From an uncultured virus (IMG/VR IMGVR_UViG_3300028883_000006) (lineage: Duplodnaviria; Heunggongvirae; Uroviricota; Caudoviricetes): 64,000 nucleotides of DNA. Of this stretch, positions 18,599-60,069 are shown piece by piece. The position numbers and the translations under genes were made by a program. Position 1 is the first letter of the stretch, and each line of letters starts with the position of its first letter. Location: the IMG/VR virus record IMGVR_UViG_3300028883_000006; one strand, 5' to 3'. The notes below the pieces were generated by a model, which worked only from the letters and a program-made list of their open reading frames with translations, made no database searches and was not told the origin of the DNA.

Positions 18599-20581
18599 AT
18601 GAGGATAGTAACTAAAGATTTGAAGGATCTCAAGACTAACACATCCCTGGGGATGCGTAAGCAGAAGATCATACGCCTGGAAACAGAGGTAGACCAGGAA
18701 GATGTAAGGGAGAATATACACCTCCTTGAGCAATGCCGTACTTACTGGGAGAGCCTGAGAGATTTCAGGGACCGCAGGAGGCGTAACCGTAGATATTACA
18801 GAGGCGATCAGTGGGGCGACCTTGTGAAGGATCCTGATAGTGTCAGTGATGATTATATTACTGAGAGTGATTATATCAAAAGGCAAGGGAAAGTACCTTT
18901 AAAGCAGAACCAGATCCGTCAGCTTGTAAAGAACCTGATAGGTCAGTATCGTAGCAATCCGTCAAAGAGTATCGTCATTGCACGACAGAGAGATGATGCC
19001 AGTCTAAGTGATATGCTCAGTAATGCTATTGAGTATGCTTCACAGATCAATATGGCAGGAGAGCTTGATGCAAGGCTGTTTGAGGAATACGCTTTGTCTG
19101 GTGCCCCTATCCAGAAGATAGGCTACAAATACTGGAAGGAACGCAACCAGGAAGATGTTTACATAGAAAATGTTAATCCAAACAGGATGTTCTTCAATTC
19201 AGATGTTTCGGATATACGTCTGAAAGACCTCAGGCTGGTAGGTGAAATTATTGATGCCCCCCTGGATGAAGTTATTTCAACATTTGCTAAGAGTAGGGCA
19301 GACCAGGAAAGGATAAGAAACCTTTACAGGGGTGTATATGAGAAAGACCTATATAGGAGAGAAGGACTTACTGCAGACACACTTGATCACCTTGATTTCT
19401 ATATACCGGCAGACCTGAACAAAGCGAGGGTGCTTGAAGTATGGTACCTGGTTGGAGAGACAAAGACATACGCACATGACCCCCTTGATGGTTCCTATGA
19501 TATTGTTGACTATACCCTCAAAGAGATAGCACAGCAAAACAGGGACAGGTTAATATTTTATAAGGAGCAAGGTTATGAAGAAGAAGAAATACCTCTTATA
19601 GAGGCAGAGGAGAAATATGAGCAGATATGGAAGGTTAAGTACCTTACACCTCATGGTCATACCTTATGGGAAGGAGAAACACCTTATGCACATGAAGAAC
19701 ATCCTTATGCTATTACCCTTTATCCTTTACTGGACGGTGAAGTATGGGGTTTTATCGAGGATGTGATAGATCAGCAAAGATATATAAACCGGCTTATTAT
19801 ACTGATGGATTTTATGATGAGTGCTTCAGCTAAAGGAGTGTTGCTTGTTCCTGAAGATGTTATACCGGATGGTATGACACCTGATGACTTTGCAAAGGAA
19901 TGGACAAGGTTTAACGGCATAATAGTTTATAAACCCAATAAAGAACACCTGCAACTACCGAAACAGATATCGAGTAATTCAACCAATGCAGGGGTAAAAG
20001 ACCTGCTTGCAATACAGATGCAATTACTGCAAGAGATATCAGGTGTGCATAGTGCTATACAGGGAATGGATGCCAAGAGTGGTACACCTTCATCCCTGTA
20101 TGCTCAGGAGGCACAAAATGCAACTATCAATACTCTGGATTACATGGAAACATTCTCATCTTTCCGTAAGAAAAGAGACATGAAGATGCTCCAGGTAATA
20201 ACACAGTTCTATAAAGAAAAACGGTTCCTGGCTATCAATGGAAGAAGTTTTGAATATGACACTATGGTATTCGATCCTGAAAAGGTCCGGGATCTGTCAT
20301 ACGATATTGTTGTTACCCAGGGTAAGGATACACCTGTATATCGACAGCTTATTGATGATACTCTTATGACATTACTGGAACAACAGTTTATAGACCTTGA
20401 GATGTTCCTGGAACACACATCACTACCTATAGCACAGAAATTACTGCAGAGTGTTAAGGCACGTAATCAGGAAATGACTGAGGAACAAGCAGGAGTAGTG
20501 CCGGAGGATATGGTCAACCAGGTTAACCAGCAGGCTAATCCGCAGGCAGTTGAATTATTAAAGAAGATGGTAAAAGGGTAA
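18599..20581 (+). CDS. Portal protein, P22-like
   Basis: 660 aa; YYRGDQW, NQIRQLVKNLIG, DVIDQQRYINR and EISGVHSAIQG are typical of P22-type portals. Confidence 0.85.
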   Translation: MRIVTKDLKDLKTNTSLGMRKQKIIRLETEVDQEDVRENIHLLEQCRTYWESLRDFRDRRRRNRRYYRGDQWGDLVKDPDSVSDDYITESDYIKRQGKVPLKQNQIRQLVKNLIGQYRSNPSKSIVIARQRDDASLSDMLSNAIEYASQINMAGELDARLFEEYALSGAPIQKIGYKYWKERNQEDVYIENVNPNRMFFNSDVSDIRLKDLRLVGEIIDAPLDEVISTFAKSRADQERIRNLYRGVYEKDLYRREGLTADTLDHLDFYIPADLNKARVLEVWYLVGETKTYAHDPLDGSYDIVDYTLKEIAQQNRDRLIFYKEQGYEEEEIPLIEAEEKYEQIWKVKYLTPHGHTLWEGETPYAHEEHPYAITLYPLLDGEVWGFIEDVIDQQRYINRLIILMDFMMSASAKGVLLVPEDVIPDGMTPDDFAKEWTRFNGIIVYKPNKEHLQLPKQISSNSTNAGVKDLLAIQMQLLQEISGVHSAIQGMDAKSGTPSSLYAQEAQNATINTLDYMETFSSFRKKRDMKMLQVITQFYKEKRFLAINGRSFEYDTMVFDPEKVRDLSYDIVVTQGKDTPVYRQLIDDTLMTLLEQQFIDLEMFLEHTSLPIAQKLLQSVKARNQEMTEEQAGVVPEDMVNQVNQQANPQAVELLKKMVKG

Positions 20582-25800: not shown

Positions 25801-26627
25801 CATTAGGTGCTATTGGATTTGGATGGTGCTGGGATTCAGAGATTGATAGTCCTTCCGAATTTGGACAGTATATATATGCCACAAAACAATATGTTGAATA
25901 TTGTGAGGATGAGGAAATAAATACCACACCATTCTTTACTACCGGAACAGTAGATGGAGGAGAAGATACATTTGGAGAAACAGGATACAATAAACATCTG
26001 GGTTATGAACAAATGAGAGATACGGTAAAAAACGGTTACTCAAGAGTATTATTCGATTATGCCGATATCCTTTGTTATAATAATTCAGGAGCAGTAAATA
26101 CAACTTCATGGAACGGACACACCTATCCTATAATTCATTCAGATAACCTATCTGGTGAATATACAGGGCATATTGGAATGGTTGGTGCTATAAGACTGGC
26201 AAAAGCAATGTGGTGGATGCTTGCAAGAATAGCAGGATGGGATGGGACCTCCTCAGGAGGACCAGAAATAGAACTACCGTCTGTATCAACAATACAGGTT
26301 TATAATATCTCTAAGACTAAATGTGAAGTAAGCGGTAATGTTTATGATACTGGTGGTGGTACGATCTCAGCGAAAGGAATATGTTATGCTATATGGTCTA
26401 ATCCAAACATAGCGGATGATCACACGAATGAAGGAGCAGGATCGGGGCAATTTAGTTCAGTAATTAACAACTTGATTCCTAATACTACATATCATGTAAG
26501 GGCGTATGCCACGAATGAGGAAGGAACTTCTTACGGAAGTGATAAAGAATTTACAACACCTAAAAAGGCTCCTGGTGTGTATAAAGGGAAGATAGGTTTA
26601 TATAACGGTGTAAAAATAAAATGGTAA
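22806..26627 (+). CDS. Secreted protein with two PL9-like right-handed beta-helix domains, an alpha/beta domain and an FN3 domain
   Basis: Signal GTNA/Q; twice YVxxNGxxxNxG..PW.T, PGDI.Y.R.G.Y, YPGETPILD and PDxGAxE; FN3-like PNTTYHVRAYATNEEGTSY. Confidence 0.8.
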   Translation: MRNILARLFIVIFIAISVGTNAQSVKYVATNGNNNNPGTISQPWATWIYGFSQLDPGDILYIRGGTYYKANNEGAFQKNYITGTSSDSIYILNYPGETPILDLSNIQTDERADCWGLITETAYVHFKGLIIQNMYENDGNDFVNMWQLYGSHTFVERCVTRYGGGRGMYCYEGDEFYFKNCDSYMHVDSLSGSLPGNDGYGFSASIPSGKSIYYNGCRAWDCGDDGFTAGGTGFVHYDNCWSFDNGELQGGGHGYKLNGSSSESSGIQKKVTNCIAAYNKIAGATTNDDDISGYYTSGMNLYNNIFYHNGYQGNQYWGYGFVLWDSNSGQTREEDRVFRNNISYGNEKGALFKESGAYYTHTYNDWDLGGVTIYDNDFLSVDSTGIRGARQADGSLPDLNFLKLTSGSDAIDVGTNVGLPYDGSAPDLGAFEYGDSPPDGIYYVSPNGNDGNSGNYDNPWRTWARAFNATELEPGDIVYFREGVYIQDTLNLNTNWYWWPYTPGRGMKITVDGAVNNTIKFWAYPGETPILDGTNVHSHFYTYKDNTGIKGDEVNYIHLKGLHIRNFKQGSGAVDNVYQLLLEDSDNVTIENCSFYNGGGRGVTIRRSGNIDIINCDAYNNYDPYGDSGVDPGDDGYGFTLVHEVGDNIKLDGCRAWKNGNSGFYDGNNTGYTEYDNCWSFRNGKLQGAGDGFNLGWINECSMTTKRYIHNCIAVYNNAAGFNDNNSLADANSYINEKRYYNNTSYKNLHGFILYEPHNNNDDSLEYRRKYRNNIAYQNTTSPITAYDGSYYTSENNSWDNGIATITDYDFISLDSTGMSGARQSDGSLPDLNDFLELSSTSDAVDAGKYVGLSYSGNAPDIGAYESPYTGSGGGGEDDTYIIADHTIVDDYEDIPQEYIDEVKKMWLSYAGQSHSGAIRDGLVALEAIDSKYQVNVTEEGTPEAYTTSHLRASRATWGSYYSSSGWTYNYSTWSWFVQSLGISRTKAGIFYCDDNNLTLGAIGFGWCWDSEIDSPSEFGQYIYATKQYVEYCEDEEINTTPFFTTGTVDGGEDTFGETGYNKHLGYEQMRDTVKNGYSRVLFDYADILCYNNSGAVNTTSWNGHTYPIIHSDNLSGEYTGHIGMVGAIRLAKAMWWMLARIAGWDGTSSGGPEIELPSVSTIQVYNISKTKCEVSGNVYDTGGGTISAKGICYAIWSNPNIADDHTNEGAGSGQFSSVINNLIPNTTYHVRAYATNEEGTSYGSDKEFTTPKKAPGVYKGKIGLYNGVKIKW

Positions 26628-26877: not shown

Positions 26878-27273
26878 ATGGGAGGTTTACTGACTATATT
26901 ATTGGTAGCCGTTGGCTATGCCATTATCAGGGCTAACCACGATAGGTACCTGAGGCAGGGAGAATGGAAAACATGGGCCTTTATAGAAGGACTTGTTATT
27001 GCCTTTGCTATATCTTTTCTGGTGGGTGGCCGGTGGTATGAGATAGGTGTTGGAACCTTACTGTTTGGCTTTACCTTCTGGATTATCTTTGACATAGTGA
27101 TGGGGATATATTTCGGTAATCATCCCCTTTATGTGGGTGAGACGAGTTTTGACCTGGAGATGAGAAAAATGTTTCAGTACACTGAGAAGTGGAAGGGAAC
27201 CTGGTATCTTATGGTCAAACTGGTATGGTGGTTGTTTGCTTTTTACCTTTATTATACATTTGGATTTGCTTGA
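26878..27273 (+). CDS. Multi-pass membrane protein
   Basis: 131 aa; about four hydrophobic segments. Confidence 0.6.
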   Translation: MGGLLTILLVAVGYAIIRANHDRYLRQGEWKTWAFIEGLVIAFAISFLVGGRWYEIGVGTLLFGFTFWIIFDIVMGIYFGNHPLYVGETSFDLEMRKMFQYTEKWKGTWYLMVKLVWWLFAFYLYYTFGFA

Positions 27274-29926: not shown

Positions 29927-30307
29927 TTATCTTAGTTTACTATCATATACTACCACATCATTGTCGAGTATATGCCATGTTGATACTAAACAGGATGCCA
30001 TAAACCCCAACACGAACAGGGCAAGAGGTAATGCACCTGTTGATATGACAGACCATAATCCCAGTATTCCAAGTATCGGCCCGATAAGTATTAGGAACCA
30101 TTTACCTTTGAAAAAATGCTTCGGGTTCAACAGGTTTACGTCATTATCAACTATGTGCCATAATGATACTATACAGGAAATAAACAATCCTATAAGCAAG
30201 ATCCACAGGGGGAACCCTGCAGTTGACGAAAGCGACCATAATCCGAATACTCCAATTAACGGAGCAATAAGGATCAAAAACCATTTACTTTTAATTAACT
30301 TTTTCAT
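29927..30307 (-). CDS. Four-TM membrane protein with an internal tandem duplication
   Basis: Two copies of KWFLILI.P..G..GLWS..ST...PL......WHI.DNDV. Confidence 0.7.
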   Translation of the reverse strand: MKKLIKSKWFLILIAPLIGVFGLWSLSSTAGFPLWILLIGLFISCIVSLWHIVDNDVNLLNPKHFFKGKWFLILIGPILGILGLWSVISTGALPLALFVLGFMASCLVSTWHILDNDVVVYDSKLR

Positions 30308-30336: not shown

Positions 30337-30717
30337 TCAGAAGGGATTATCCTCCTCTATATCTTCTGCCGGTTGATCTTTGGAAGGGGCCTTTGACAGC
30401 ATCTTCATCTCATCGACCATTATCTCCGTCTTGTAATGAGTATTACCTTTATCATCCTCCCAGGACCGGGTTTTTATCCTGCCCTCAACAGCTATCAGCA
30501 TACCTTTGGTGATATGCTTTTCTGCTACCTTCGCAAGGTTTCCCCACATGACAATGTTGTGCCATTCTGTTTCCGTTACCTTTTCATTCTGCTTGCTCAT
30601 ATAGGATTCATTAGTGGCAAGGGGGAAGTTTGCCACTACCTTACCACTATCCAGATATTTCACATCGGGATCGTTTCCTACATTGCCTATCAGTTGTACT
30701 TTATTCACTATGCTCAT
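30337..30717 (-). CDS. ssb: Single-stranded DNA-binding protein
   Basis: VNKVQLIGNVGNDP, TEWHNIV, VEGRIKTRSW; acidic tail ending in PF. Confidence 0.95.
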   Translation of the reverse strand: MSIVNKVQLIGNVGNDPDVKYLDSGKVVANFPLATNESYMSKQNEKVTETEWHNIVMWGNLAKVAEKHITKGMLIAVEGRIKTRSWEDDKGNTHYKTEIMVDEMKMLSKAPSKDQPAEDIEEDNPF

Positions 30718-31677: not shown

Positions 31678-33693
31678 TTAAAAACTGGCTTCAGACTGTA
31701 CCTTTTTAACACTGGCTGAAGTCGAAGTTTTGGTTACTATCTTTGGTGGTGGCAGGTATCTGAGAACTATCCAAAGGTCAATAGCTGTAGTAATGACTAT
31801 ATCATCATGTCCTCCATCCACTGCTCCCAGTGTACCATTCTGTTTTATCTCGTACATATCCATCTCATCACAAGCCCTGGAGTCTCTTTCTATATATCCT
31901 TCCTCCCTTAGTACAGCGTTCATCAGGTTTATGACCATTGGCTTAGTTGACAGGTTAGTATGAAATCCATACTTTGCAGGTATTCCTTCCCTTACTCTTT
32001 CGGGATCTGTCCTTGCATACAGGTTAGGGTAGTAGTCCTTTATCTCATCGAGTATTGTAAGTGAGTGTTCACCTTCCGTTCCTTCCGTTTCGGTTCTCAA
32101 GGAGTTTACTTCAATAGCAACTATACCTTTATTATAAAACCATCCTATCTGTGCTGCCTTCCATGCAACAAGGTCCTGGTCAAGGTGTCCTCTCCATGTA
32201 GCAACTACCTCAGGCTTGCCTCCTTCTATCATCCAGTATCTATCAATTACCCGGATAACAGACCAGTCTGCATCTTTAGTTCTTCCCCCGATATCTACAG
32301 ACACCGGATATCTGTTAGGGATATTGAGTGATTTGTCAGGCAATGACCATATCCATAGTTCCCCTGCAGGATTCTTGACAAACCTTATATTCTTCAAGGC
32401 ATCTGGTCCGAAGTGTGAGTCAGCATCTAAATCTCCGATGATTTCAGGTTCCTTGCAGTTCTGTCTTGCTTTCTGGACATATACCGGTGCAAAGGCCCTT
32501 CTTCCTGTTGACTGGAAGGCTTCTTCCGGGGTTGAAGGAAATTCGGAGTTCATACGCCAGTCATCGTACCCTTCACCTTTCTTTGTCCTAATATACCAGT
32601 TAATACCCTCCAGGGTAGCTCCCAGTTCCCATAGGAATTGTGCATACTCATTCCCTTTACGGAACACCCATCTTATAAACTTGGTATAATCTAAGATAGG
32701 TCTTTGGTATATTTCTATCTCCCACCATGCAACAAAGACAGGGCGATAATCGGATATTTTGTTTACAGCACTTATCCATTCTCTATGAAAGAAGTTACCT
32801 ACACCTTTAGCTGTTGACTCCATCACAGCCAGGGTATAAGGTTCATTGGGTATTGTTGCTCTTATGGATTGGGCAAGATCTTCTGCAGACTTTTGTGCTG
32901 TTGACTTCCATAATCCAACCTCAGACAGGTGGCTCATAGCAAAGTCAAATGATCTGAGGTTGTCAGGTTTTTGTACCGACCCTACACCTACAATACAGTT
33001 ACGTTCAACAATCCTTTTGTTCTTAGTACTTCCTTCAAATGCTTCAAAGGTGATGCTCCCTACAGCTTTGGGGTATTCCCTTGCCAGGGTAGTATACATT
33101 CCCCTTATGTTTCGTGCCTGGTCCTCTACATCTGCAATAATGGCTGAGTGCCAGTTTTTCTTATGTTGTGTCTGTATCCAGGCCATGTAATACTGAACCA
33201 TAGTTGAGCCTCCCCATTGTCGTGCCTTAAGCAATATAATTCTTATAGGGATATTGTTCAGCCTCATATCCTCAAGTTCTACCAGGAGTTTCCTTTGAGC
33301 CTTATTAAGCCTGAACTGGATCTGTTCTTTGCTTATCTTATCCTGTATCTTGCCACAGGTATATGCCCAAAACTCGAAGTCGTGTTTCATCCTTTGTTCA
33401 TTGAGGTTAGCCATAAGGATATCGACATCCGACTTTCTTCCCTGCCCCATTACTTTTAGCACAACTTCCTCAGGGGATCCAAGCTGGTTAAGAAGATCAA
33501 TGACTCGTTTGTTTTCCTGGTACATTGACTCCGGGACAAAGAGTGTAAACTTCCGGCTGTTATAGAAGTATTCAACCTTAACCCTTTTTAGAGGCGAACC
33601 TACACCTGTAATAGGATCATAAAAAGAAAATAGGTCATCCCTTCGCTTCTTGTTTTCCTCAAATATTATCCCTATTTCCTTATTTGTTATCAT
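31678..33693 (-). CDS. terL: Terminase large subunit
   Basis: RIILLKARQWGGST (Walker A), HLSEVG (Walker B), MESTAKG; nuclease motifs VDIGG and HDDIV. Confidence 0.92.
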   Translation of the reverse strand: MITNKEIGIIFEENKKRRDDLFSFYDPITGVGSPLKRVKVEYFYNSRKFTLFVPESMYQENKRVIDLLNQLGSPEEVVLKVMGQGRKSDVDILMANLNEQRMKHDFEFWAYTCGKIQDKISKEQIQFRLNKAQRKLLVELEDMRLNNIPIRIILLKARQWGGSTMVQYYMAWIQTQHKKNWHSAIIADVEDQARNIRGMYTTLAREYPKAVGSITFEAFEGSTKNKRIVERNCIVGVGSVQKPDNLRSFDFAMSHLSEVGLWKSTAQKSAEDLAQSIRATIPNEPYTLAVMESTAKGVGNFFHREWISAVNKISDYRPVFVAWWEIEIYQRPILDYTKFIRWVFRKGNEYAQFLWELGATLEGINWYIRTKKGEGYDDWRMNSEFPSTPEEAFQSTGRRAFAPVYVQKARQNCKEPEIIGDLDADSHFGPDALKNIRFVKNPAGELWIWSLPDKSLNIPNRYPVSVDIGGRTKDADWSVIRVIDRYWMIEGGKPEVVATWRGHLDQDLVAWKAAQIGWFYNKGIVAIEVNSLRTETEGTEGEHSLTILDEIKDYYPNLYARTDPERVREGIPAKYGFHTNLSTKPMVINLMNAVLREEGYIERDSRACDEMDMYEIKQNGTLGAVDGGHDDIVITTAIDLWIVLRYLPPPKIVTKTSTSASVKKVQSEASF

Positions 33694-33896
33694 GGTTGGA
33701 CTCTTTTTGTTTTTCTTCTTATCTCCTTCTGTATCACTTTGGCTATATGTGAATTACTACAGAAAAATTCATCTGCCAGGAGATCGTAAAAATGTTTCTT
33801 TGGGAGCAATGCGGAATTTGGCTCAGAGGCTATTAGCTCTTTATATCTTTCAAATATCCGCTTGTGTTTTAACGAAGTTTGCGTAATACGTAACAT
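33690..33896 (-). CDS. Small HTH-like protein (late regulator or terminase small subunit candidate)
   Basis: 68 aa; YDLLADEFFCSNSHIAKVI is helix-turn-helix-like; ATGA overlap with terL. Confidence 0.5.
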   Translation of the reverse strand: MLRITQTSLKHKRIFERYKELIASEPNSALLPKKHFYDLLADEFFCSNSHIAKVIQKEIRRKTKRVQP

Positions 33897-34023: not shown

Positions 34024-35025
34024 ATGGAAGGAAGTACATCAGCAGGTGCAGCAGCCGGAGAAGGAACGCCATCAGGCGAAGCATCAGAGGGTGCCGTACA
34101 AGCACAGCAAACAAATGAGGCAGGGGAAGTACAGGTAACTGAAAAAGCAACCCCCGAGAAAAAGACTGAACCGATAAAAGAAAAGACAATAGCAGATACT
34201 ATTGAGAAGGAACCCGAGAAGAAACCCGAGAAAGATACAGAAGGGGAAAAAACCGAAGGGAAAGAAGAAAAGAAAGATGAAGCGAAGGAGGAGAAGCCAG
34301 TACACAAACACCATGATCGTTTGAGTAAGGCTTTTCCTGATCGTCCATTTGAGAATGATAATGACTATGATACTGCATTGGAAGAATACCTAAGCGACCT
34401 TGAGAGTTATAAGGATAGAGGAGTGACTGCCAACCAGAAACTAATAAATCTGTTTGAAGCATCTCCTGAGGTTGCAGAGGTAGTCCGGGATATGATTGCG
34501 GGGGCCACACTAAGAGAAGCCCTGGCAAGGCATATATCACCTGAGGATCTTAGTCCTGTCGAAGGTGATCCTGATTATGAAGGCTGGGAAAAGAATAAGA
34601 ATGATAGAGTGAAGAAAGCCGAGGATCGCAGGAAATTTGAACAGGAATACAGTGAGAACCTGGAGTTTTCCAGTCAGGCTATAAAGGAGTTTGCTAAGGA
34701 AAATGATATGACTGAAGAAGCAGCCAGTGATTTTCTTGGCAAATTTGATAACATCCTGGCAGACATCTATCGTGGGAAGATAGGCAAGGAAACACTTGCT
34801 CTTATTAAAAGGGCAATGGACTATGACTCTGCAGTGGAGAAAGCAAAGGAAGATGGCAAAATTGTAGGGAGAAACGAAAAGATTGTTGTCAAGAAAAAAG
34901 AGGACAAAAAAGAGGGAGATGGACTTCCTAAGGTCACAGGTTCAACACTTGAGGACCAAGAAAAAGAAGGCAAGCATTTCTTAGAGGACATGCTTGATCG
35001 TATCAATGAAAGGAAGGTGCTTTAA
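34024..35025 (+). CDS. Capsid scaffolding protein
   Basis: Acidic, low-complexity N-terminus and helical body; directly upstream of the capsid gene. Confidence 0.7.
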   Translation: MEGSTSAGAAAGEGTPSGEASEGAVQAQQTNEAGEVQVTEKATPEKKTEPIKEKTIADTIEKEPEKKPEKDTEGEKTEGKEEKKDEAKEEKPVHKHHDRLSKAFPDRPFENDNDYDTALEEYLSDLESYKDRGVTANQKLINLFEASPEVAEVVRDMIAGATLREALARHISPEDLSPVEGDPDYEGWEKNKNDRVKKAEDRRKFEQEYSENLEFSSQAIKEFAKENDMTEEAASDFLGKFDNILADIYRGKIGKETLALIKRAMDYDSAVEKAKEDGKIVGRNEKIVVKKKEDKKEGDGLPKVTGSTLEDQEKEGKHFLEDMLDRINERKVL

Positions 35026-35056
35026 AACAATGTGGAATTTTTAAAACGAGACAAAC

Positions 35057-36421
35057 ATGAAAAACAATATTTTTTATTACGGAACTAAAATACTCGGCTT
35101 TGCCCTTTTTGTGGCAGTGCTGTTAGTATTTAATACTGTCGCTGCTGCAGCTACAGGTGTAGTCTTTGCTATGGCTGATGGTGCTGTTGTAGCTGACCAG
35201 CCGGTGCATACCACACCGGTTAAAGCAGGTAGTGCAGATTTGCTAACTAACCATATATCCAAGATAGTAACGCAGATGAAACCTGCTGCTACTCCCCTGG
35301 ATACGATACTCAGGCAGGTAAATAACCAGGTAAAGATCAATTCATTCAGGAGTGACTTTTACAGGGTTGACTCCAGACCTTTATATGATACTGTTAAGAC
35401 AGCTTATACTAAGACTGGTGACGGTGTAACTAATGTTGAACTTGAGGTTAATAATATTCAGGCATGGAGTGCTGATGACACCTGTATGTTTAAAGGCGTA
35501 ACAGGGGCACAGGACAGTAATGACCTTGTATGTTATGTAATAAGCAAGAATGTCAGTACATCTAAGATAAAGATTCAGCCCCTTAACGGTGATTCTGGTT
35601 CAGGAACTACTGAAGGTTCGATTGTACTGCCAACTATAGCACAGAATACTGTTATAGTACGTATGGGACCTGTTAAGCACGAACTGGATGCTCAGACAGA
35701 TCCTTACGCTATCGTGCCTGTCAAGGACTATAACTATGTCCAGATATTCATGGCACAGGTAGAAGAAGGTACTTACCAGGCCATGCACAGCAAGGAAGTT
35801 GACTGGTCATTCAAAGACTATGAGGCTCAGAATATCTATGATATGAGAGCAAGGGTTGAGTATTCATTCCTATTTAGTTATAGGTCACTGTTTACTTCTG
35901 TAGAAGATAGTAAAGAACGTCACACTACAGGAGGTGTTACAAGGAATATAACCAAAGGTCTTGAGTATGGTACCGGTGGAGCAGACCGTACCGTTACCGA
36001 TGCTAATTTTGTTGACTGGACCAAGAGTATCTTTACAGGTAACTCAGGAGCAGAGACAAGAGTGCTTTTCATAGGTGATGGTCTTGGTGCTAATATATCA
36101 AAGATCACTACAGTACAGAAACAGATCGAAGCCAAGAAGGTAGAGGTTAAATGGGGTATTCGCTTCAATCAGATTGAAACTAACTTTGGTATCCTTCTGA
36201 TGAAACATCACCCACTGTTTAATATTGCTGGATGGGGTGATAATGGACTTGTACTTGATATGAATAATATCGAGAAGCATGTATGGAAGCCGATGGCAGC
36301 TCGTAAACTTGACCTTATAACCTCAGGACAGAGAAATGCTAACGCATCTGTTATAGAGGAGGCAAGTGCAGCTATATGTCGATATCCTGATACTCACGCT
36401 ATAATTGCACCTAAGGCATAG
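35057..36421 (+). CDS. Major capsid protein with hydrophobic N-terminal leader
   Basis: TPLDTIL, YNYVQIF, EYSFLF, TTGGV and IETNFG..LMKHHPLF resemble SU10/DUF5309-type capsids; sits between scaffold and a terminator. Confidence 0.8.
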   Translation: MKNNIFYYGTKILGFALFVAVLLVFNTVAAAATGVVFAMADGAVVADQPVHTTPVKAGSADLLTNHISKIVTQMKPAATPLDTILRQVNNQVKINSFRSDFYRVDSRPLYDTVKTAYTKTGDGVTNVELEVNNIQAWSADDTCMFKGVTGAQDSNDLVCYVISKNVSTSKIKIQPLNGDSGSGTTEGSIVLPTIAQNTVIVRMGPVKHELDAQTDPYAIVPVKDYNYVQIFMAQVEEGTYQAMHSKEVDWSFKDYEAQNIYDMRARVEYSFLFSYRSLFTSVEDSKERHTTGGVTRNITKGLEYGTGGADRTVTDANFVDWTKSIFTGNSGAETRVLFIGDGLGANISKITTVQKQIEAKKVEVKWGIRFNQIETNFGILLMKHHPLFNIAGWGDNGLVLDMNNIEKHVWKPMAARKLDLITSGQRNANASVIEEASAAICRYPDTHAIIAPKA

Positions 36422-36503: not shown

Positions 36504-36989
36504 ATGGCACAAACTAAAATTTATCAATCAATTAGATTTCACACTCTTGACACCTATGTTATGGTGGATGGAAAACAACACCTTATAGAGTTCAGGGGTG
36601 GAACGCTGAAACCTGATATCAAAGGGAAATTCACGACTAACGATCCGAAACTTATCAAGGCTCTGGATAATGATTCAGGCAATGGTAATTCATTCAAATG
36701 CATAGGGGTAATAGGGAAAAAGGATCCTAAACCTGACAATTTTAAAAGTAATCCCCCGGAGGGGACAGACGAACCTGCACAATCCGGGGAAGAACATCCA
36801 GATACACCTGATACAAAAGTCGATCAGAAAGCCATTATAGCTGACGGAATAAGTACCGTTCAGGGAGCAAGGGATTACTTAGTAAGCAATGTAGATGGTC
36901 TGACGGCAAGTAAGCTCCCTAACAAGGCAGCTATCTTAAATGCAGCTAAAGCAAACAACATTGTATTCCCGCACCTGCCTAAAGACTAA
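36504..36989 (+). CDS. Hypothetical head-associated protein
   Basis: 161 aa after the capsid gene; two small domains joined by a Pro-rich linker. Confidence 0.6.
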   Translation: MAQTKIYQSIRFHTLDTYVMVDGKQHLIEFRGGTLKPDIKGKFTTNDPKLIKALDNDSGNGNSFKCIGVIGKKDPKPDNFKSNPPEGTDEPAQSGEEHPDTPDTKVDQKAIIADGISTVQGARDYLVSNVDGLTASKLPNKAAILNAAKANNIVFPHLPKD

Positions 36990-36992
36990 GCG

Positions 36993-37601
36993 ATGGAAAG
37001 GGCAGGGCTGGTTAATAAGGTAAAAATCAAGCTGGATGAGTTCACTCCTGATGGGGTGGACCTCCCTTTTGATGACTATATAGGACCGATGCTTGATGAG
37101 AGTGCTAAAGACATACTTGAACAGGCACCTTTGCACCTTATTATCCCTGAAGAAATACCAACGTCAGCCATTAAGTATCAGAATGATCTTGTTTACATCC
37201 CGGTTCCAGATAATTATATCAGGCTCTATGAGATAAAATTTCCTTCATGGAAGAAATCTATAAGGGAAGCTATCAGTCAGTCACATCCGATGTATGAGAT
37301 TCAGGAAAATGAATATACCAAGTCGGGGTTGGGCAGACCTTCAGTTGTCTTAAAGTATGAGAAGGTCGATAATATACCCGGGAGGTGGCTTGTATGCGGT
37401 AAAGTATCTGATGTAGGAAGCCCAACACCTTCAATAGCACTTTATGTTAGAGAGCTATTACCAGAACAGCTTAGTGATCATTTTGCCGATGCATTGACAT
37501 GGCTTGCTGCATCAAAGATATTTCAGATAGAAGGACTGATATCTCAGGCAGAGATGGCTCTGGCACAGTATAAATTGTCATTACAGAATAAAAGTATCTG
37601 A
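36993..37601 (+). CDS. Head-tail adaptor-like protein
   Basis: RAGLVNKVKIKLDE N-terminus, VPDNYIRL and DALTWLAAS; position in the head module. Confidence 0.6.
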   Translation: MERAGLVNKVKIKLDEFTPDGVDLPFDDYIGPMLDESAKDILEQAPLHLIIPEEIPTSAIKYQNDLVYIPVPDNYIRLYEIKFPSWKKSIREAISQSHPMYEIQENEYTKSGLGRPSVVLKYEKVDNIPGRWLVCGKVSDVGSPTPSIALYVRELLPEQLSDHFADALTWLAASKIFQIEGLISQAEMALAQYKLSLQNKSI

Positions 37602-37603
37602 TT

Positions 37604-37984
37604 ATGTTATTTACAGGCAGCACACCGGAATATTTGCTCAAGATAATTGACAGGGATGGAACACAGAAGGATCCTTCTGTTTCAACCCAGGTAGTAGAGG
37701 TCAAGATATTTATATATAATTCTTTGACCAGGGCAAGTGTGGGAAAGTTTATTCTTAATGAAAATCCTTTACCAAGTGGGTTTAATAGAGCTACTGTTGT
37801 TGATCTTGGAGGAGGAGATAAAAGGGTGAGATTTGAGCTTACTGCAACTATGACAAACGCTGCAGGAGGTAACAGCAACTCTATTCAGGTGGATGTTCAT
37901 TTTTATGATACTGATTATGCTGATAATACAAGAATAGTTAAAAAACAAGGCCGGTTCAGTGAAATTACGAAGGCTCAGACTTAG
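37604..37984 (+). CDS. Beta-sandwich virion protein (BppU-N-like)
   Basis: 126 aa; FTGSTP..LKIIDRDG and VRFELTATMT. Confidence 0.5.
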   Translation: MLFTGSTPEYLLKIIDRDGTQKDPSVSTQVVEVKIFIYNSLTRASVGKFILNENPLPSGFNRATVVDLGGGDKRVRFELTATMTNAAGGNSNSIQVDVHFYDTDYADNTRIVKKQGRFSEITKAQT

Positions 37985-37986
37985 TT

Positions 37987-40900
37987 ATGAAAAGATCGCA
38001 TTATGTTGATGATATCAGAGTTCTTCATGAAAATAAACGCCCCTTACAAGTATTCAATCAGTCTGATAATGTCAGGTTTGAGATAGAGCTTATAGGAGGA
38101 GGAGGAGATGATATTGTCTTAACAGATGCACCTGAAACCGGAATACTATTCATTGACGAACAACCTCTTTCGGTTGAAGTAGCAGATACTCCTGACACCT
38201 TAACAGCCGTATTTATTGAGTTTTTGGACTCATTGTTCATTTTTACACATCCTGCCCAGGGGTTTGTGTCCCCCCTTGATATACACCCCGGGGACCATCC
38301 TTTTATTATTGATACGAGCCTTCAGGGTGGTTTTATAGCAAAGAATACTGGTGAGCCTAAGACACAACAATTTGAAATAGAGCTTGTGGATCAAGCCTAT
38401 GAAGTTAAGAAATCAGCCATATTAGCCAAACATCTTAAGCATGGAGAGGAAAAGGCATTTGATTTTAATATCGATTCATCTGCATCAACAGGACTTCACA
38501 GGTTACGGATAAGAACAAGGGATATTCTCGCAGCAGGGAGTGAGGAGGTTACTATTACAACTAAAGATGAAGAAGATATTACTACTAAGGATGAGAAAAA
38601 AATAATAACTGAAAGAATAATAGCACCTGGCTTTCTTATTACCACCAAGTCAGGGGAGCAGCTAACCACCAAGTCAGGGGAGGAACTTGAAACCAAACAA
38701 GAAGCTGAAATTGCAGTACTGGTAGGAGAGTGGGTTTACAGTAAGTCATTTTATATAAGTGGTGTGCCTGCAGATGTTGAGGTCACTGGCATACAAGACA
38801 TATCAGACGGAGAAGCAGGAACAGTTATCAATCCGGTAATAAATTATTCCAATACTGGAGGTGAAGGAGAGGTGACTATTCTTTGGCAGATAAAGAATAG
38901 TGGAGATAATGTTGTGGATTCAGATTCTATAAGTGTGCTGTTTCCCTCCGGCTCAGGGACAAAACAAATACCAGGGATTTATTACCCTGCACAGGGAGAT
39001 GATTATACCCTTGAAATAAAAGAGTCTGATGACTCATCTTACGAGGTAAGCAATGCTTTTGATACATACACAGTCACACCACCACCACCAACTAATATCG
39101 GAGTAACCTTTGTTACAGCTGAGGCAGGTGTGAATTACGTCAGGGACCTTATTAGCTGTGACATATCAGTGTTTAATAATGGAGGGGAAGGTTCGGCTAC
39201 AATAGAATGGAGAGTTATAGACGTAGAACTGGAGAATATTTACGATACCGGAACCATTGGTACAGGTACGGTAGGGGAAAATTCTGGCAAGTCCGTAGAA
39301 GTAACCGGTATAGAGACACCATCCATAATAGGGGTTTATTTCATACAGGCAAGGATACAAGGATCGGGGGATGCCTGGATGTCCAGTTCAATGCTTACAT
39401 GGGGTGAACCATTAGTGGTAACAAATATAGCTCCTGCATCCAGTCAGTATGATCCAGGGGCACAAATACTAACAGATATTACAGTTCTGAACCGTAGTGA
39501 CCTGTCAACAACAGGAATGTTAGAATGGCAGGTAGTTAACCTTGTAAACGCACTACAGAGTAGCGGAACAAGACCTGTGACAACTATTGCTGCAGGACAG
39601 TCAGAAGTATTCCAGGAAACATACATCTATGCTCCGGTCAATTCTGGCGATTATAGGATAAGGGTAAGGATAAAAGATAGTGGAGCAGATTGGAAGTATA
39701 GCGATATTATCGCAGTAAGATTAATGCCAGACGTATATGTTTCTGAGGTTGGTCATATAGATAACGGACAGGAAGGATCGTTAATAACAGTAGGATTCAA
39801 CTATAACAATACAGGGGGAGAGGGTGATGTAACATTTCAGTGGCAGATAAAGAACAGTGGGGGTTCAGTTATTGATTCGGGCAGCGAGGAGATGCCTTTG
39901 CCTGCAGAACCAGGGACAAGGTATTTGTCAAACATACTATATCCTTCTGAAGGATCAGGATATACAATAGAAATAAAAGAAGAAAATCAGAGTGAGTGGA
40001 AGTCAAGTAATTCATTCAATACCTGGCCTGATGAGACAGATCTTGCTGTGACTATTGTAACACCCGAGTCAGGTTATTTATATACAGATGATAATATTGA
40101 CTGTGATATAACGGTATATAATACCGGTGCCCTGGGATCTGGTATAATTGAATGGAGGGTGATAGATGCAGCTTTGGAAAATGTTTATGATACTGGCACT
40201 AAAGATACCGGGCTTGTAGGATCCTTTAACACGAAAGTTATTGCCGTCAATGGCATAGAAACACCGTCACTGGAAGGTAGTTATTTCATACAGGCAAGGA
40301 TTCAGGGGTCAGGGGATGCCTGGATATCCAGTTCATTAATAACACTACAGGAGCCGCTACTGGTAACTGATGTTATTCCTGCATCTTACCAGTATGATGT
40401 TAATACGCAGATGCCAACCAGTATTTCAGTTTATAACAGAGCATCCCTTTCCCAGGCAGAAACAATAGAATGGCAGGTAGTTAATCTATCTTATTCTGTT
40501 CAGAGTAGTGGTACAATACCAACACCAGATATATCAGGAGGATCGACTGAGATAGTAAACGTACCTAATATATATAGCCCTGCCAACAACGGAAGTTATA
40601 AGATAAGGGCAAGGATACAGGGGGCCAGTCAAACATGGACTTATAGTGATACAATAACCATAGCCGAGTATCCTAAGGTTGAAGTAACAGAATTAAGCAT
40701 TATAGATGACGGACAAAGTGGATCTCCGATAACTGTAACCTTTAATTATAATAATACAGGAGGTGCAGGAAATGCTACGATTTATTGGAGGGTAAAGGAT
40801 AAGTTTGGAACTATTGTTTCTTCAGGATCCTCTGTTATAGCTTTTCCTGCAGAACCAGGAACGGCTCCTCTTTCCGGTATTGTTTATCCGGTGGCGGGTA

Positions 40901-41922
40901 TTGACTACATCCTTGAAGTAAAAGAAACAGACGATAGTTCCTGGGAGGCAAGCAACAAATTTGAAACCTGGCCCAACTATCCAGATATGAGTGTAATTAG
41001 CGTTTTACCTCAAAGTGAGGACAAATATGCAGACGATAATATTAGTTGTGAGGTGGGTCTATTTAACTTTGGGGCAGAGGGGACACAGACCTTAGAATGG
41101 CAGGTAGTGAACCTTTCTGACAATATCCTTAAATCCGGGTCACAATCAACCGGGGTGATTCCTTCCAGGATAGTCAAATCCGTTGACATAAATGTATTAC
41201 TCCCTACAGCAATAGGTACTTACAAGGTAAGGGCAAGGATACTTAATTCAGGGGATGCCTGGGTGTATAGTACGGCGTTCACCACAAAAGAACCTCTTAT
41301 AGTTACACAGGTTAATCCTACAGCCTATGAGTTCGATGAAGGATCACAGATGAAAACCAATTTCTTTATTCAGAACCGGGCAGTCAACTCAAGAGTCGGA
41401 ATACTGGAATGGGAAGTTGTTGACCTGTCCGATAATATTCAAAGTAACGGAATTATGCCGTTCACTTCTATTAGCGGAGGGCAGACTTCATATTTTCAAT
41501 GTAACGCAATTTATGCACCCGAAACAGGAGGCACTTTTCGCATAAGAGGGAGAGTTCAGGGAACAACAGATGCCTGGGTATATAGTAGTAATATTTTAGT
41601 GATTGCAAGTCCTGATGTGGATGTTACAGGTATTGACACCATAATGGACGGAATGGCAGGTATGCCAATATATCCTTTATTCTTTTACTCCAACAGTGGA
41701 GGGGCTGGCAAGGCATTAATATCCTGGACTATAAGGAATAGCTCTGATATTATAATATATCAAGGAAGTGAAGAAGTTGATATTGTTGCCGGATCAGGGG
41801 CAACAACACTTAATTATCCTGAGTATCCTTCAGCAGGCACAGGTTATTATATGACAATAAAAGAAGCAAGCGATGTTTCATACGAGACAAGTAATTCATT
41901 TGATACAACTGAACAAATATAG
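37987..41922 (+). CDS. Large Ig-like repeat protein (ten beta-sandwich domains), probable virion fibre/adhesin
   Basis: Three-domain unit repeated from about 38767, 39727 and 40672, plus a fourth A domain from about 41611; motifs YxNTGGxG, EWQVV, ARIQGSGDAW. Confidence 0.75.
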   Translation: MKRSHYVDDIRVLHENKRPLQVFNQSDNVRFEIELIGGGGDDIVLTDAPETGILFIDEQPLSVEVADTPDTLTAVFIEFLDSLFIFTHPAQGFVSPLDIHPGDHPFIIDTSLQGGFIAKNTGEPKTQQFEIELVDQAYEVKKSAILAKHLKHGEEKAFDFNIDSSASTGLHRLRIRTRDILAAGSEEVTITTKDEEDITTKDEKKIITERIIAPGFLITTKSGEQLTTKSGEELETKQEAEIAVLVGEWVYSKSFYISGVPADVEVTGIQDISDGEAGTVINPVINYSNTGGEGEVTILWQIKNSGDNVVDSDSISVLFPSGSGTKQIPGIYYPAQGDDYTLEIKESDDSSYEVSNAFDTYTVTPPPPTNIGVTFVTAEAGVNYVRDLISCDISVFNNGGEGSATIEWRVIDVELENIYDTGTIGTGTVGENSGKSVEVTGIETPSIIGVYFIQARIQGSGDAWMSSSMLTWGEPLVVTNIAPASSQYDPGAQILTDITVLNRSDLSTTGMLEWQVVNLVNALQSSGTRPVTTIAAGQSEVFQETYIYAPVNSGDYRIRVRIKDSGADWKYSDIIAVRLMPDVYVSEVGHIDNGQEGSLITVGFNYNNTGGEGDVTFQWQIKNSGGSVIDSGSEEMPLPAEPGTRYLSNILYPSEGSGYTIEIKEENQSEWKSSNSFNTWPDETDLAVTIVTPESGYLYTDDNIDCDITVYNTGALGSGIIEWRVIDAALENVYDTGTKDTGLVGSFNTKVIAVNGIETPSLEGSYFIQARIQGSGDAWISSSLITLQEPLLVTDVIPASYQYDVNTQMPTSISVYNRASLSQAETIEWQVVNLSYSVQSSGTIPTPDISGGSTEIVNVPNIYSPANNGSYKIRARIQGASQTWTYSDTITIAEYPKVEVTELSIIDDGQSGSPITVTFNYNNTGGAGNATIYWRVKDKFGTIVSSGSSVIAFPAEPGTAPLSGIVYPVAGIDYILEVKETDDSSWEASNKFETWPNYPDMSVISVLPQSEDKYADDNISCEVGLFNFGAEGTQTLEWQVVNLSDNILKSGSQSTGVIPSRIVKSVDINVLLPTAIGTYKVRARILNSGDAWVYSTAFTTKEPLIVTQVNPTAYEFDEGSQMKTNFFIQNRAVNSRVGILEWEVVDLSDNIQSNGIMPFTSISGGQTSYFQCNAIYAPETGGTFRIRGRVQGTTDAWVYSSNILVIASPDVDVTGIDTIMDGMAGMPIYPLFFYSNSGGAGKALISWTIRNSSDIIIYQGSEEVDIVAGSGATTLNYPEYPSAGTGYYMTIKEASDVSYETSNSFDTTEQI

Positions 41923-42005: not shown

Positions 42006-42593
42006 ATGAGAGAGGAGTTCTTGATAGCACATTGTCTTGATACACCTACAGACATGGATGTGACTGTAGGAATGATTGACCAGTGGCATAAAGGTCCGAG
42101 GGATCTTACTGATGGGAGGGTAAGATATATGCGTAAAAACTATGAGAGTCGGGATGAACTTCCTGACGAATACCTGGGTGGAGTACATATAAAAAAACTA
42201 CATGGCAGGGGATGGGACCGGAGGGGATACCGGTGGATGATTAAGCGAAGCGGTGCTATATGGATACTTTCCCCTGATAACAGGGATGGCTTTATACAAC
42301 CAGGAGAGGTGACATGGGGAGCTAAAGGATTCAACCGTAACAGTGTTCATGTTGCTCTGGAAGGAGGAAAATTAAAAGAAGGGCAAAAAGCTCCTATGCC
42401 TTTTCTTGATCTGTTTACCGGCAAGCAGTATGATATGTTTGAGAGGGTATGCAGGGATTTTATGATTGAACACCCTGAGGGAAGGATAGGCGGGCATTGT
42501 GATATTGCTAATTATAAGACCTGTCCAAACTTTGATGTGGCAGAATACCTTGATAATATAGGGATACCATCTTATTATATATACGCAGCATGA
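42006..42593 (+). CDS. Endolysin, N-acetylmuramoyl-L-alanine amidase (T7 lysozyme-like)
   Basis: LIAHCLDT, IDQWH, RGWDRRGY, GFNRNSVHVALEGG, GGHCD, KTCPNFDV. Confidence 0.88.
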   Translation: MREEFLIAHCLDTPTDMDVTVGMIDQWHKGPRDLTDGRVRYMRKNYESRDELPDEYLGGVHIKKLHGRGWDRRGYRWMIKRSGAIWILSPDNRDGFIQPGEVTWGAKGFNRNSVHVALEGGKLKEGQKAPMPFLDLFTGKQYDMFERVCRDFMIEHPEGRIGGHCDIANYKTCPNFDVAEYLDNIGIPSYYIYAA

Positions 42594-44460: not shown

Positions 44461-45636
44461 ATGGCTACATTTAAACCTGTAATCCATAAAACTGATGCTC
44501 GTCAGGATGGAACTGTCAATATAAAGATCCGGCTCGGTCATCACAGAAAGGTTAGTTATCTGCCTACTAAATACTATGTAAAGCCAGAGGAGTTTGATTC
44601 ATCAACAGGCAAGGTAAAGGCAAAGTATATGACTGAACAGGAAGCAGAGGTAATAAATCTTCGCCTGACAGGTCAAATAGGACAATATGCAAGGAAGTTG
44701 GATCATCTTGGGGAGAAGATATCAGGCATGGATATAAAGAGCCTGGTGAGGATCCTAAGGGATAAAAACGAGAAATATGATATCTATTCCCTCCTGGATG
44801 AAAGAATAGCATTACACAAAAAGGTTGGCAACACGAATTATGCATCACTGTTTGAAAGGACAAAGGGCATACTACAGGAATATTATGGATCATCATACCT
44901 TACATTTGACAGGATAGATGCTGAATGGCTCAAGAGGCTGGAGGTCAAAATGAGGGTTGATAAGTTTAAGTCCAACAGCATAGGGATCCACATGAGAAAT
45001 ATCCGCACCATATATAACCAGGCCATATCCTTCGGTCTTGTCGATTTGAATATGTACCCTTTCCGAAGGTATCATATACCAAAAGAAAAGACCAGGAAAA
45101 GGAGTAATACCGCAGAGGAGATGCGTAAGATGAGGTATGCTAAAATCACCAATCCTTTGACAGCATGGGCAAGGGATATGTTCATGCTGTCTTTTTATCT
45201 TATCGGGATAAATATGAAGGATATGATGTTTCTGGACGGAATAGAGGATGGAAGGATATTTTATATACGCAGTAAGGGGAAGAAGGAATATTCAATACTT
45301 GTCCAACCGGAAGCGATGGAGATTATTAATAAGTATCCAGGGAAGAAATACCTCCTTAACACAATGGATAACTATTCTGATTACAGGACCGCAACAAAGA
45401 GGATAAACAAAAAGCTAAAGGATGTTGCCGGTGAATGTAAGATAAATAAGAAGATAACTACATACTGGGCAAGACATTCCTGGGCCACCATTGCCAACCG
45501 TATAGGCGTATCTAGGGATACCATAAGATATGCCCTGGGCCATGCCGGGGGCACTGTTACCGATATATATATTGATTATGACCTGGAACAGGTTGACCAG
45601 GCAAATAGGAAGGTTATTGATTTTATCAAGGAATAA
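44461..45636 (+). CDS. int: Tyrosine integrase, Bacteroidota type
   Basis: Arm-binding N-terminus (DGTVNIKIRL), SAM-like middle, SFYLIGINMKD, YWARHSWAT, ALGH and TDIY catalytic motifs. Confidence 0.93.
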   Translation: MATFKPVIHKTDARQDGTVNIKIRLGHHRKVSYLPTKYYVKPEEFDSSTGKVKAKYMTEQEAEVINLRLTGQIGQYARKLDHLGEKISGMDIKSLVRILRDKNEKYDIYSLLDERIALHKKVGNTNYASLFERTKGILQEYYGSSYLTFDRIDAEWLKRLEVKMRVDKFKSNSIGIHMRNIRTIYNQAISFGLVDLNMYPFRRYHIPKEKTRKRSNTAEEMRKMRYAKITNPLTAWARDMFMLSFYLIGINMKDMMFLDGIEDGRIFYIRSKGKKEYSILVQPEAMEIINKYPGKKYLLNTMDNYSDYRTATKRINKKLKDVAGECKINKKITTYWARHSWATIANRIGVSRDTIRYALGHAGGTVTDIYIDYDLEQVDQANRKVIDFIKE

Positions 45637-45884: not shown

Positions 45885-46271
45885 TCAAAACTTCATAACC
45901 GCCCCTGTAGGTGTTATTGTCAGTGCCGCTTCCTTCAGGCGGGTATCGGCCCCCCAAAACATTATCCAGGATATAAATTCCATTGCACCGGCACCCATTA
46001 GCAAGTAACCGCCAATTTTCGGATCATCATTTCCTGTAACCAAAAGACCTGCCCCTGCTACCAGGATACCGCTTGCACCGACAAAGAAGGCTGCTTGTCT
46101 TGCTTTGTAGTATTTATACAGGGCAGGATTGACAATTTCTTCTTTAACCTGGGTTGTGTCCTGCTGGACGATATCTTCCTCCTTAGGATTACCAAACACA
46201 TACTTTTTCTGCTGGGCAGAAAGGGTGTTGACAACAAGTGTCAAAACAAATAAAATCAATAATTGTTTCAT
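45885..46271 (-). CDS. Exported membrane protein co-oriented with the repressor (lysogenic conversion/exclusion candidate)
   Basis: Signal TLSA/Q and two hydrophobic helices; starts 2 bp after the repressor stop. Confidence 0.6.
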   Translation of the reverse strand: MKQLLILFVLTLVVNTLSAQQKKYVFGNPKEEDIVQQDTTQVKEEIVNPALYKYYKARQAAFFVGASGILVAGAGLLVTGNDDPKIGGYLLMGAGAMEFISWIMFWGADTRLKEAALTITPTGAVMKF

Positions 46272-46273: not shown

Positions 46274-46918
46274 CTAAAACCTCAATCTTTTTATTATACC
46301 TTTAACAGATAGTATCTTATCTATTTCGTGCATCTTAATGATATTTTCGCTTTCAGTATCCGACTCTATCCTGGCAACTAAATTATTTTGTTCGTCAAGT
46401 CTTTTTATTATCCTGATTACTGCAAAGTTTTTCCCTATTATAAGGTATGGTTCACCAAAGACTACCGGTTCTTCATCAGTCTCGCAACATAATACTATAT
46501 CCCCTGGAGAAAAGGTTGGAGTCATACTGGCTCCAATAATATCAAAGGCGTAATCACATCCTTCCATTCCTGAAATTTTAATAACAGAAATGGGGTTTGA
46601 GATTTTATTAATTGCATTATGGAAGTCTTTGAAAGATGATGTTTTATAGTATTTGATTGTTCCAGGTTCATCCCAGGGGGATCTCTTACTGTGTAATATG
46701 TCACCATCTCCGGTTATGAGCCAACGCAAATTAACTTCAGGAAAAGTCTCAGCTATTTTATTTAACACAAGATAAGAGGGTGCCCTTTCTTTATCATTAA
46801 TTATTCTTCCAATAACATTATTACTTGTTAACCCGATATTAACGGAAAATGAGTTTGTATTATACCCAAGATAATTAATTAGGTATCCAAGTCTTTCACT
46901 TACTGTGCTGTGTGCCAA
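46274..46918 (-). CDS. CI-like repressor with S24 peptidase domain
   Basis: N-terminal HTH, VNLRWLITGDG, GASMTPTFSPGDIV; divergent from a small HTH gene. Confidence 0.85.
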   Translation of the reverse strand: MAHSTVSERLGYLINYLGYNTNSFSVNIGLTSNNVIGRIINDKERAPSYLVLNKIAETFPEVNLRWLITGDGDILHSKRSPWDEPGTIKYYKTSSFKDFHNAINKISNPISVIKISGMEGCDYAFDIIGASMTPTFSPGDIVLCCETDEEPVVFGEPYLIIGKNFAVIRIIKRLDEQNNLVARIESDTESENIIKMHEIDKILSVKGIIKRLRF

Positions 46919-60064: not shown

Positions 60065-60069
60065 AACTA

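Follow-up and report, generated by a model that had tools for sequence, protein, structure and literature searches.

The major capsid protein (MCP) of an uncultured Caudoviricetes virus, encoded in a 64,000-nucleotide stretch of DNA (IMG/VR record IMGVR_UViG_3300028883_000006; the whole of this stretch is called the window below), begins with a leader of about 40 residues that resembles a signal peptide or transmembrane (TM) helix. Comparison with relatives indicates that this leader is a genuine, translated part of the MCP precursor, conserved among homologues and subject to purifying selection. Tentatively, and with a confidence somewhat short of probable, we read it as a removable membrane-targeting pro-segment, which a membrane peptidase of the host would cleave in the clade of the window. 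In the textbook view of tailed phages, capsid proteins are soluble and cytoplasmic, and any pro-segments they have are cut by a phage prohead protease.

The capsid gene and its leader

The capsid gene, the parts of its leader, and the gene preceding it are arranged as follows.

34024..35025, plus strand: scaffolding-like protein of 333 amino acids (aa), directly upstream of the MCP gene, phrog_22323
35057..36421, plus strand: MCP precursor of 454 aa with a SU10/DUF5309-type HK97 fold, assigned by Pfam, PHROGs, AlphaFold2 (AF2), and Foldseek
35057..35089, plus strand: leader n-region, residues 1-11 (MKNNIFYYGTK), a K-rich tip with conserved N4 and F6
35090..35146, plus strand: leader hydrophobic core, residues 12-30, a TM-like helix with a 19-residue Kyte-Doolittle hydropathy (KD19) of 2.50
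35147..35194, plus strand: small-residue (A/G/T/V) segment, residues 31-46, candidate processing region with G34 and the near-invariant G42

The open reading frame (ORF) at 35057-36421 encodes a SU10/DUF5309-type HK97-fold major capsid protein. Its body matches Pfam SU10_MCP (PF17236) over residues 64-451 with an E-value of 4.2e-31 (109 bits against a cut-off of 24.1), and phrog_26635 matches residues 32-449 (E 1.9e-59); NCBIfam supplied no name for the MCP or its neighbour genes. The AF2 model, built on 60 sequences, has a mean pLDDT of 79.5, and a Foldseek search with it returned Vibrio phage VP1 (9in6_M, E 5.4e-25) as the best match, followed by crAss001, SU10, HK97, and encapsulins. The same entry, 9in6_M, was the sole match in a profile search of PDB sequences (E 1.5e-20).

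The ATG at 35057 is the earliest possible start: its frame is interrupted by a TAA at 35042-35044, and from there to the ATG it contains no other start codon; the scaffold-like gene stops at 35025, upstream of this ATG. The 42-residue leader quoted in an earlier, sequence-only reading of this DNA opens the ORF exactly. The start given there, 35057, stands, while the end, given as 35180, has to be moved two bases further, to 35182.

The first ~40 residues consist of a K-rich tip (K2, K11) followed by a 29-residue uncharged, TM-like stretch, with KD19 peaking at 2.50 over residues 12-30 and reaching 1.6 nowhere in the rest of the protein. AF2 folds residues 5-36 into a single helix, with pLDDT values of 64-81 over residues 1-30 and below 50 over residues 33-51. 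Across a 60-row alignment, conservation is concentrated at N4 (39/60), F6 (43/60), G34 (41/60), and G42 (56/60), while the core keeps its hydrophobic character across the family and varies in sequence.

The hydrophobic core of a Sec signal peptide spans ~7-15 residues. Measured against a Sec signal of the signal peptidase I type, the MCP leader has the positive n-region, but its uncharged run of 29 residues (family median 36) is too long to count as a short core. A-x-A-like triplets are frequent in the small-residue segment and are not diagnostic, because the segment is A/G-rich, and no Gln is conserved there. A lipoprotein signal was rejected, as no conserved Cys follows the core. A two-helix hairpin anchor was also considered; the second segment of the window protein (residues 35-46, with D41) is too short for it, and in distant clades charged residues part the two segments, although the close clade is still compatible with a hairpin.

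Conservation of the leader and choice of start codon

A word-index search recovered 228 MCP homologues, of which the best 120 were analyzed; 114 of these are at least 430 aa long. A segment with KD19 of at least 1.6 lies within the first 80 residues in 113 of the 114, down to 44% identity, with P0113 as the sole exception, and the mean KD19 peak is 2.39. The median length of the uncharged run in the same set is 36 residues (quartiles 33-39), with a mean of 2.7 K/R and 0.14 D/E before the core. The residue that follows the run is acidic in 110/114 (D 72, E 38, K 3, R 1).

More distant relatives were collected with HMMER using the body only (residues 61-454), which yielded 593 representatives of 50% identity clusters at E ≤0.001, including 236 at E ≤1e-30. 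Among the best 150 of the 593, 140 are at least 400 aa long, and the leader is found in 126 of these 140; thus the conservation that the sequence-only reading had proposed to check across homologues is borne out in both collections. The 14 representatives below the leader threshold include three borderline cases (1.47-1.58) and seven that are clearly leaderless, the latter beginning at equivalents of window residues ~26-42 (judged from protein only, where wrong start calls are possible). Because of where these relatives begin, the tip and core, approximately residues 1-30, can be regarded as an add-on, and the leader appears dispensable for the MCP fold, since leaderless relatives exist. The small-residue segment at 31-46 is where the part common to the leaderless relatives begins, and it is partly shared with them.

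Start codons were counted in 67 full-length viral loci, 55 of them non-identical. All 67 keep an open, conserved leader frame, and the first codon is ATG in 55/55. The fraction of A upstream of the first ATG is 0.56 in these relatives, against 0.19 upstream of internal ATGs, and the window follows the same pattern, with 0.50 at codon 1 and 0.15 at codon 39. Over codons 1-46, pN/pS is 0.22 when pooled from 17 locus pairs that are not independent of one another; nine of the pairs are too close to show leader changes, and the other eight have pN of 0.02-0.16 against pS of 0.03-0.52.

These counts bear on two alternatives. The sequence-only reading had allowed that an internal Met (MADG) could be the true start, with translation from 35171 leaving the upstream 114 bases untranslated. 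An ATG is indeed present at codon 39 of the window gene, yet its column is ATG in only 4/54 relatives. The internal start is rejected as very improbable because the first ATG is universal among the 55 loci, Met39 is unconserved, the A-rich context belongs to codon 1, and the leader frame evolves at a pN/pS of 0.22.

The second alternative, which we consider rather improbable, is that the gene makes two products in the manner of hepatitis B precore and core, with a full-length form exported or membrane-bound and a shorter, internally started form building the capsid. The leader resembles an export signal by charge rules, ordinary export signals occur on other ORFs of the phage, and an in-frame ATG, GTG, or TTG lies at columns 30-58 in 46/55 relatives. 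However, start-capable codons are not conserved at any column between 20 and 66 (maximum 0.47), 20/55 relatives have no in-frame ATG and 9/55 no start-capable codon of any kind at columns 30-58, the internal ATGs are A-poor upstream, and the leader lacks the +1 Gln seen on four other signal-bearing ORFs.

Search for a processing protease in the phage

Pfam and PHROGs searches of the 65 window ORFs, in which the 6069-aa giant ORF was scanned in two halves, found no prohead protease, in line with the sequence-only reading, which had seen no standalone gene of this kind. Peptidase-type matches among these ORFs are limited to the S24 repressor and to a RadC/JAB domain of the polyvalent protein. 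A complete relative, G003 (71.6 kb, direct terminal repeats, MCP 60% identical), likewise showed no head-module protease when its 95 ORFs were searched with Pfam. It does carry a caspase-domain (Peptidase_C14) ORF at L156:13141-14058, far from the head genes.

Scaffold, portal, and terminase genes accompany the MCP in its head module. A scaffold homologue is present in 70/70 loci and the large terminase subunit (TerL) in 67/70. The idea that the scaffold hides a protease-scaffold fusion was rejected, as its AF2 model shows ~90 disordered residues at the N-terminus, purely helical structure after them, and nothing resembling a protease fold. Among 69 loci, no multi-TM protein recurs close to the MCP. 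Two multi-TM ORFs of the window, 26878-27273 and 29927-30307, were rejected as membrane proteases, having no Pfam protease match and no conservation beside the MCP. The latter (minus strand, 126 aa, no family match) has four hydrophobic segments and an apparent internal duplication, each half beginning K-x-K-W-F-L-I-L-I and finishing W-H-I-[VL]-D-N-D-V.

Removal of the leader by an unrecognized phage-encoded protease, rather than a host enzyme, is therefore a reading that we consider unlikely. No protease family appears in the 65 window ORFs or in the G003 head module, the scaffold as the sole universally linked neighbour is all-helical, and the 69 loci share no multi-TM protein near the MCP. 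In addition, P22-like and SU10-like podophages do not, to our knowledge, use prohead proteases. On the other side, many window ORFs have no family, the window may miss a few kb of the phage, and a paper on Porphyromonas phages suggests a phage protease for capsid proteins with predicted signal peptides (PMC10367356).

A sister clade with a phage mini-rhomboid

Three Bacteroides phages, BF1-TP2, BKO1-TP3, and BS-TP4 (PQ571263, PQ571269, PQ571277), have MCPs 32-34% identical to that of the window and are the only cultured phages of this capsid family in the phage collection searched. All three bear the leader, and all encode a rhomboid-like protein of 155-172 aa directly upstream of TerL, divergent from the scaffold and MCP genes. 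The BF1-TP2 protein passes the Pfam Rhomboid threshold (24.9 bits against a cut-off of 22.6), and H50, N52, H55, N59, G105, S107, and H149 are invariant in 12 diverse phage rhomboids. Within 155-172 residues the phage mini-rhomboid holds all catalytic motifs and six hydrophobic segments with K/R-rich ends, as read from its sequence, which is the usual rhomboid layout. One of these proteins (L074:6001-6516) weakly matches the rhombosortase model TIGR03902, with an E-value of 0.0044 that is far under the cut-off.

A scan of viral contigs found at least 97 relatives of the phage rhomboid, of which 80 loci were kept. An MCP lies within 6 kb in 76/80, and the leader is present on all 76 of these MCPs; the remaining four loci without an MCP comprise three short ones (3.2-7.6 kb) and one of full length (L118, 12.5 kb). 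The pairing of rhomboid and leader counts as one evolutionary event, because the rhomboid loci form one clade.

The sister-clade phages share with the window the MCP family and the gene order, with a giant polyvalent protein, portal, and TerL divergent from scaffold and MCP. Their leader is also built alike: a K-rich tip comes first, then a hydrophobic core, a small-residue segment, and an acidic residue. They differ in the length of the uncharged stretch, which is ~19 residues in the sister clade against 29 in the window (window family median 36), and in the rhomboid upstream of TerL, which the window lacks. The sister-clade leader is invariant at A22, S23, V26, M28, A29, A31, and L34-G38. 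According to PMC2941825, rhomboid substrates have a hydrophobic P4, a small P1, and a hydrophobic P2', and V26, A29, and A31 fit these three positions. The window stretch G34-V-V-F-A38-M-A40, read as V35-V-F-A38↓M-A40, aligns with the sister V26-M-M-A29↓D-A31, as a loose motif in an A/G/V-rich stretch. A complex prediction for a sister-clade rhomboid with MCP residues 1-70 scored 0.01 (mark 0.32) and weighs neither way.

The clade of the window and its probable hosts

No rhomboid was found in the window with Pfam, phmmer, or a hidden Markov model (HMM) built from three phage rhomboids. The place that the rhomboid occupies beside TerL in the sister clade holds only a 68-aa ORF, at 33690-33896, in the window.

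31678..33693, minus strand: TerL, phrog_2 terminase large subunit

A quick MCP tree, whose root is arbitrary, places the window in a 27-row clade (SH-aLRT 100) with zero rhomboid loci, while nine rhomboid-linked rows fall in a 12-row clade (99) nested in a 23-row group (100). That group also includes five of the seven leaderless rows, and leader-bearing rows occur on all main branches. The leader thus extends well past the rhomboid-bearing clade, and a large clade keeps a longer leader without a recognizable phage protease.

The hosts are probably Bacteroidota. Among 17 capsid relatives from genome bins, 12 bins are named Bacteroidales, Bacteroidetes, Prolixibacteraceae, Odoribacter, or Prevotellaceae, and the other five Mollicutes, Dehalococcoidia, Methanolobus, 'bacterium', and Candidatus Egerieisoma; in a protein atlas, Bacteroidota is the commonest bacterial phylum for MCP relatives. 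Rhomboid family PF01694 was found in 14/14 control genomes, including Bacteroides thetaiotaomicron, so that a host enzyme would be available.

Proposed processing of the precursor

In the reading that we prefer, synthesis of the MCP starts at the first ATG and yields a precursor that carries ~30-45 extra residues at its N-terminus, and the hydrophobic helix would bring the nascent protein to the cytoplasmic membrane. The pro-segment would then be removed near residues ~38-47, before the MCP enters the shell. In the rhomboid-less clade the cut would be made by a host rhomboid or signal peptidase I, and in the sister clade the phage's own mini-rhomboid presumably does the same job. A more far-reaching proposal, which we regard as doubtful, is that a large clade of Bacteroidota phages parks its MCP in the cytoplasmic membrane in an assembly-incompetent state until a membrane peptidase frees it, with some phages supplying a rhomboid of their own and the clade of the window using a host enzyme. 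The sequence-only reading had pictured a membrane-tethered procapsid with leader removal by a host peptidase; release from the membrane before assembly is more plausible, because a closed shell cannot be tethered by every subunit.

Several points weigh against cleavage at the membrane by a host enzyme. Beyond the window itself, rhomboids are absent from 69 loci (L002-L070, ±10 kb or to the contig end) by phmmer and HMM, where the best extra match, at E 0.01 in a 90-aa ORF, was judged noise. Three CheckV-complete relatives also lack a rhomboid at E ≤1, with the BF1-TP2 protein found as a positive control. The only protease link thus comes from another clade, because the clade of the window has no rhomboid, and a rhomboid near head genes is an association and not proof of a substrate. 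The window candidate for P4, P1, and P2' (V35, A38, A40) is not diagnostic, hydropathy was scored by a crude Kyte-Doolittle window only, and the window may hold less than the whole phage.

The most direct conflict is one of topology. With a positive flank on its N side and an acidic one on its C side, the core is predicted to lie N-in/C-out, an orientation that would export the ~400-residue capsid body and is therefore incompatible with DNA packaging, for which the capsid protein has to encounter DNA and terminase in the cytoplasm. The rhomboid active site faces the periplasm, which also counts against the proposal, and N-in/C-out is also the orientation that would give a rhomboid or signal peptidase I access to the small-residue segment. 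Possible ways round the conflict are that a loop alone enters the membrane while the folded body stays inside, or that the leader works at the membrane surface or never meets the membrane.

The topology conflict is avoided altogether if the leader is retained as an internal, non-membrane hydrophobic helix that serves assembly, as a mini delta-domain or scaffold-docking element inside the procapsid or between subunits. HK97-type capsid proteins often have N-terminal assembly extensions, AF2 predicts one long helix at residues 5-36, and N4 and F6 of the tip are conserved. Nevertheless, a separate scaffold gene is present in all 70 loci, the core conserves hydrophobicity and not sequence as membrane segments do, and an uncharged N-terminus of 29-36 residues with KD of ~2.4 should be picked up by membrane-targeting machinery. 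Several hundred such helices inside a DNA-filled head would also be implausible, and the sister clade couples the leader with an intramembrane protease. On this balance we consider a retained helix improbable.

Comparison with known systems

One precedent concerns phages of Porphyromonas gingivalis ('Nixviridae'), for which a single sentence in PMC10367356 reports MCPs with predicted signal peptides and ascribes their cleavage to a prohead protease. The sequence-only reading took HK97-fold capsid proteins to lack membrane leaders, and these predictions mean that this is not strictly so. Like the phage of the window, the Porphyromonas phages are Bacteroidota phages with a signal-peptide-like MCP start, whereas the phage prohead protease credited with cleavage there was not found in the window phage.

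The delta domain of HK97 gp5 and the propeptide of T4 gp23 are likewise N-terminal extensions outside the mature fold that are absent in some relatives. These segments are soluble and are cut inside the prohead by a phage protease, while that of the window is hydrophobic and signal-like, in a phage where no prohead protease was found. A fused delta domain is also long and soluble and replaces a scaffold gene, in contrast to the hydrophobic leader of ~40 residues and the separate scaffold gene of the window.

A parallel to the proposed gating is the TatA pro-protein of Providencia stuartii, which is activated by the rhomboid AarA (PMC3712462, PMC2941825). There, a short N-terminal extension at or within a membrane helix blocks formation of a large homo-oligomer until the rhomboid cut, as proposed here for the MCP, and the TatA motif combines a small residue at P1 with hydrophobic ones at P4 and P2'. 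The two differ in that TatA stays in the membrane once cut, whereas the capsid protein, whose cleavage is proposed, must become soluble in the cytoplasm.

Sec signals of Bacteroidota follow a +1 Gln rule, as cited in PMC10367356, and share with the MCP leader a positive tip and a hydrophobic core followed by small residues. In four ORFs of the window phage, a short leader finishes with S↓Q or A↓Q. Three follow the portal on the plus strand with Sec-type signals, at 21185-22309 (...AYS↓Q), 22312-22806 (...LNA↓Q), and 22806-26627 (...TNA↓Q), and the fourth is a small ORF beside the repressor, at 45885-46271 on the minus strand (...LSA↓Q). The MCP leader is longer than these four export signals, has no +1 Gln, and sits on a protein that acts in the cytoplasm.

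Our literature search found no paper linking a rhomboid to phage capsid proteins, and none on BF1-TP2, BKO1-TP3, BS-TP4, or DUF5309 capsids. A term search of the crAss001 atlas (PMC10172136) and a rumen phage paper (PMC5723332) found no mention of capsid leaders.

Genome context

From the gene content below, the window seems to cover the greater part of the genome of a temperate phage of podophage type.

387-18596, plus strand: polyvalent protein of 6069 aa, assigned by domain matches
18599..20581, plus strand: P22-like portal, Pfam P22_portal (E 3.1e-45), phrog_156
30337-30717, minus strand: SSB
36504-37984: three small head or neck genes
37987-41922, plus strand: 1311-aa repeat protein
42006-42593: amidase
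44461-45636: integrase
46274-46567, minus strand: S24 repressor
52555-53943: DnaB-type helicase

The 6069-aa ORF is DarB-like, combining InPase, N6/N4 DNA methylase, ResIII/helicase, RadC-JAB, ART-PolyVal, and LPD38 domains, and it lies directly upstream of the portal, an arrangement also seen in the cultured relatives. In G003 (L154-L157), endonuclease ORFs occur at scattered places in the genome, five of the GIY-YIG/NUMOD3 and one of the HNH/NUMOD4 type; one of them separates the polyvalent protein from the portal, and another lies amid the head genes. The 1311-aa protein occupies the expected tail or fibre gene position; by eye, a unit of ~300 residues is repeated at least four times, and Pfam gives only a weak Y_Y_Y match.

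Among the three signal-bearing ORFs that follow the portal, 22806-26627 encodes a 1273-aa, PelN/Pel9A-like beta-helix protein that is tailspike-like, and both exported lysogen proteins and virion proteins are conceivable for the trio. Signal-peptide and lipoprotein ORFs are grouped in a comparable way in G003, at L156:4250-12653. A 118-aa ORF at 57935-58291 (plus strand) has a lipoprotein-like start (...MISS↓C), and its product and that of 45885-46271 are possible lysogenic-conversion surface proteins. Further downstream, a cluster at 59390-62159 (plus strand) contains a formyltransferase-domain ORF together with two of the radical-SAM type, of which one is DUF5131-like; the cluster may form a nucleotide or DNA-modification module.

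Implications for phage head assembly

Hundreds of sequence clusters share a conserved signal- or TM-like pro-segment, in a phage group without a recognizable prohead protease. If the proposed processing is true, intramembrane or juxtamembrane proteolysis would control whether heads assemble in these phages, and neither this route nor such dependence on the host has been described for any tailed phage. The question can be tested directly, as three related Bacteroides phages are in culture. For bacterial rhomboids, most of whose substrates are unknown, the capsid precursor would also be a natural substrate. Making heads would then require a membrane protease in abundant Bacteroidota phages of the gut and the environment, which would constitute a new control point and possibly a determinant of host range or defence.

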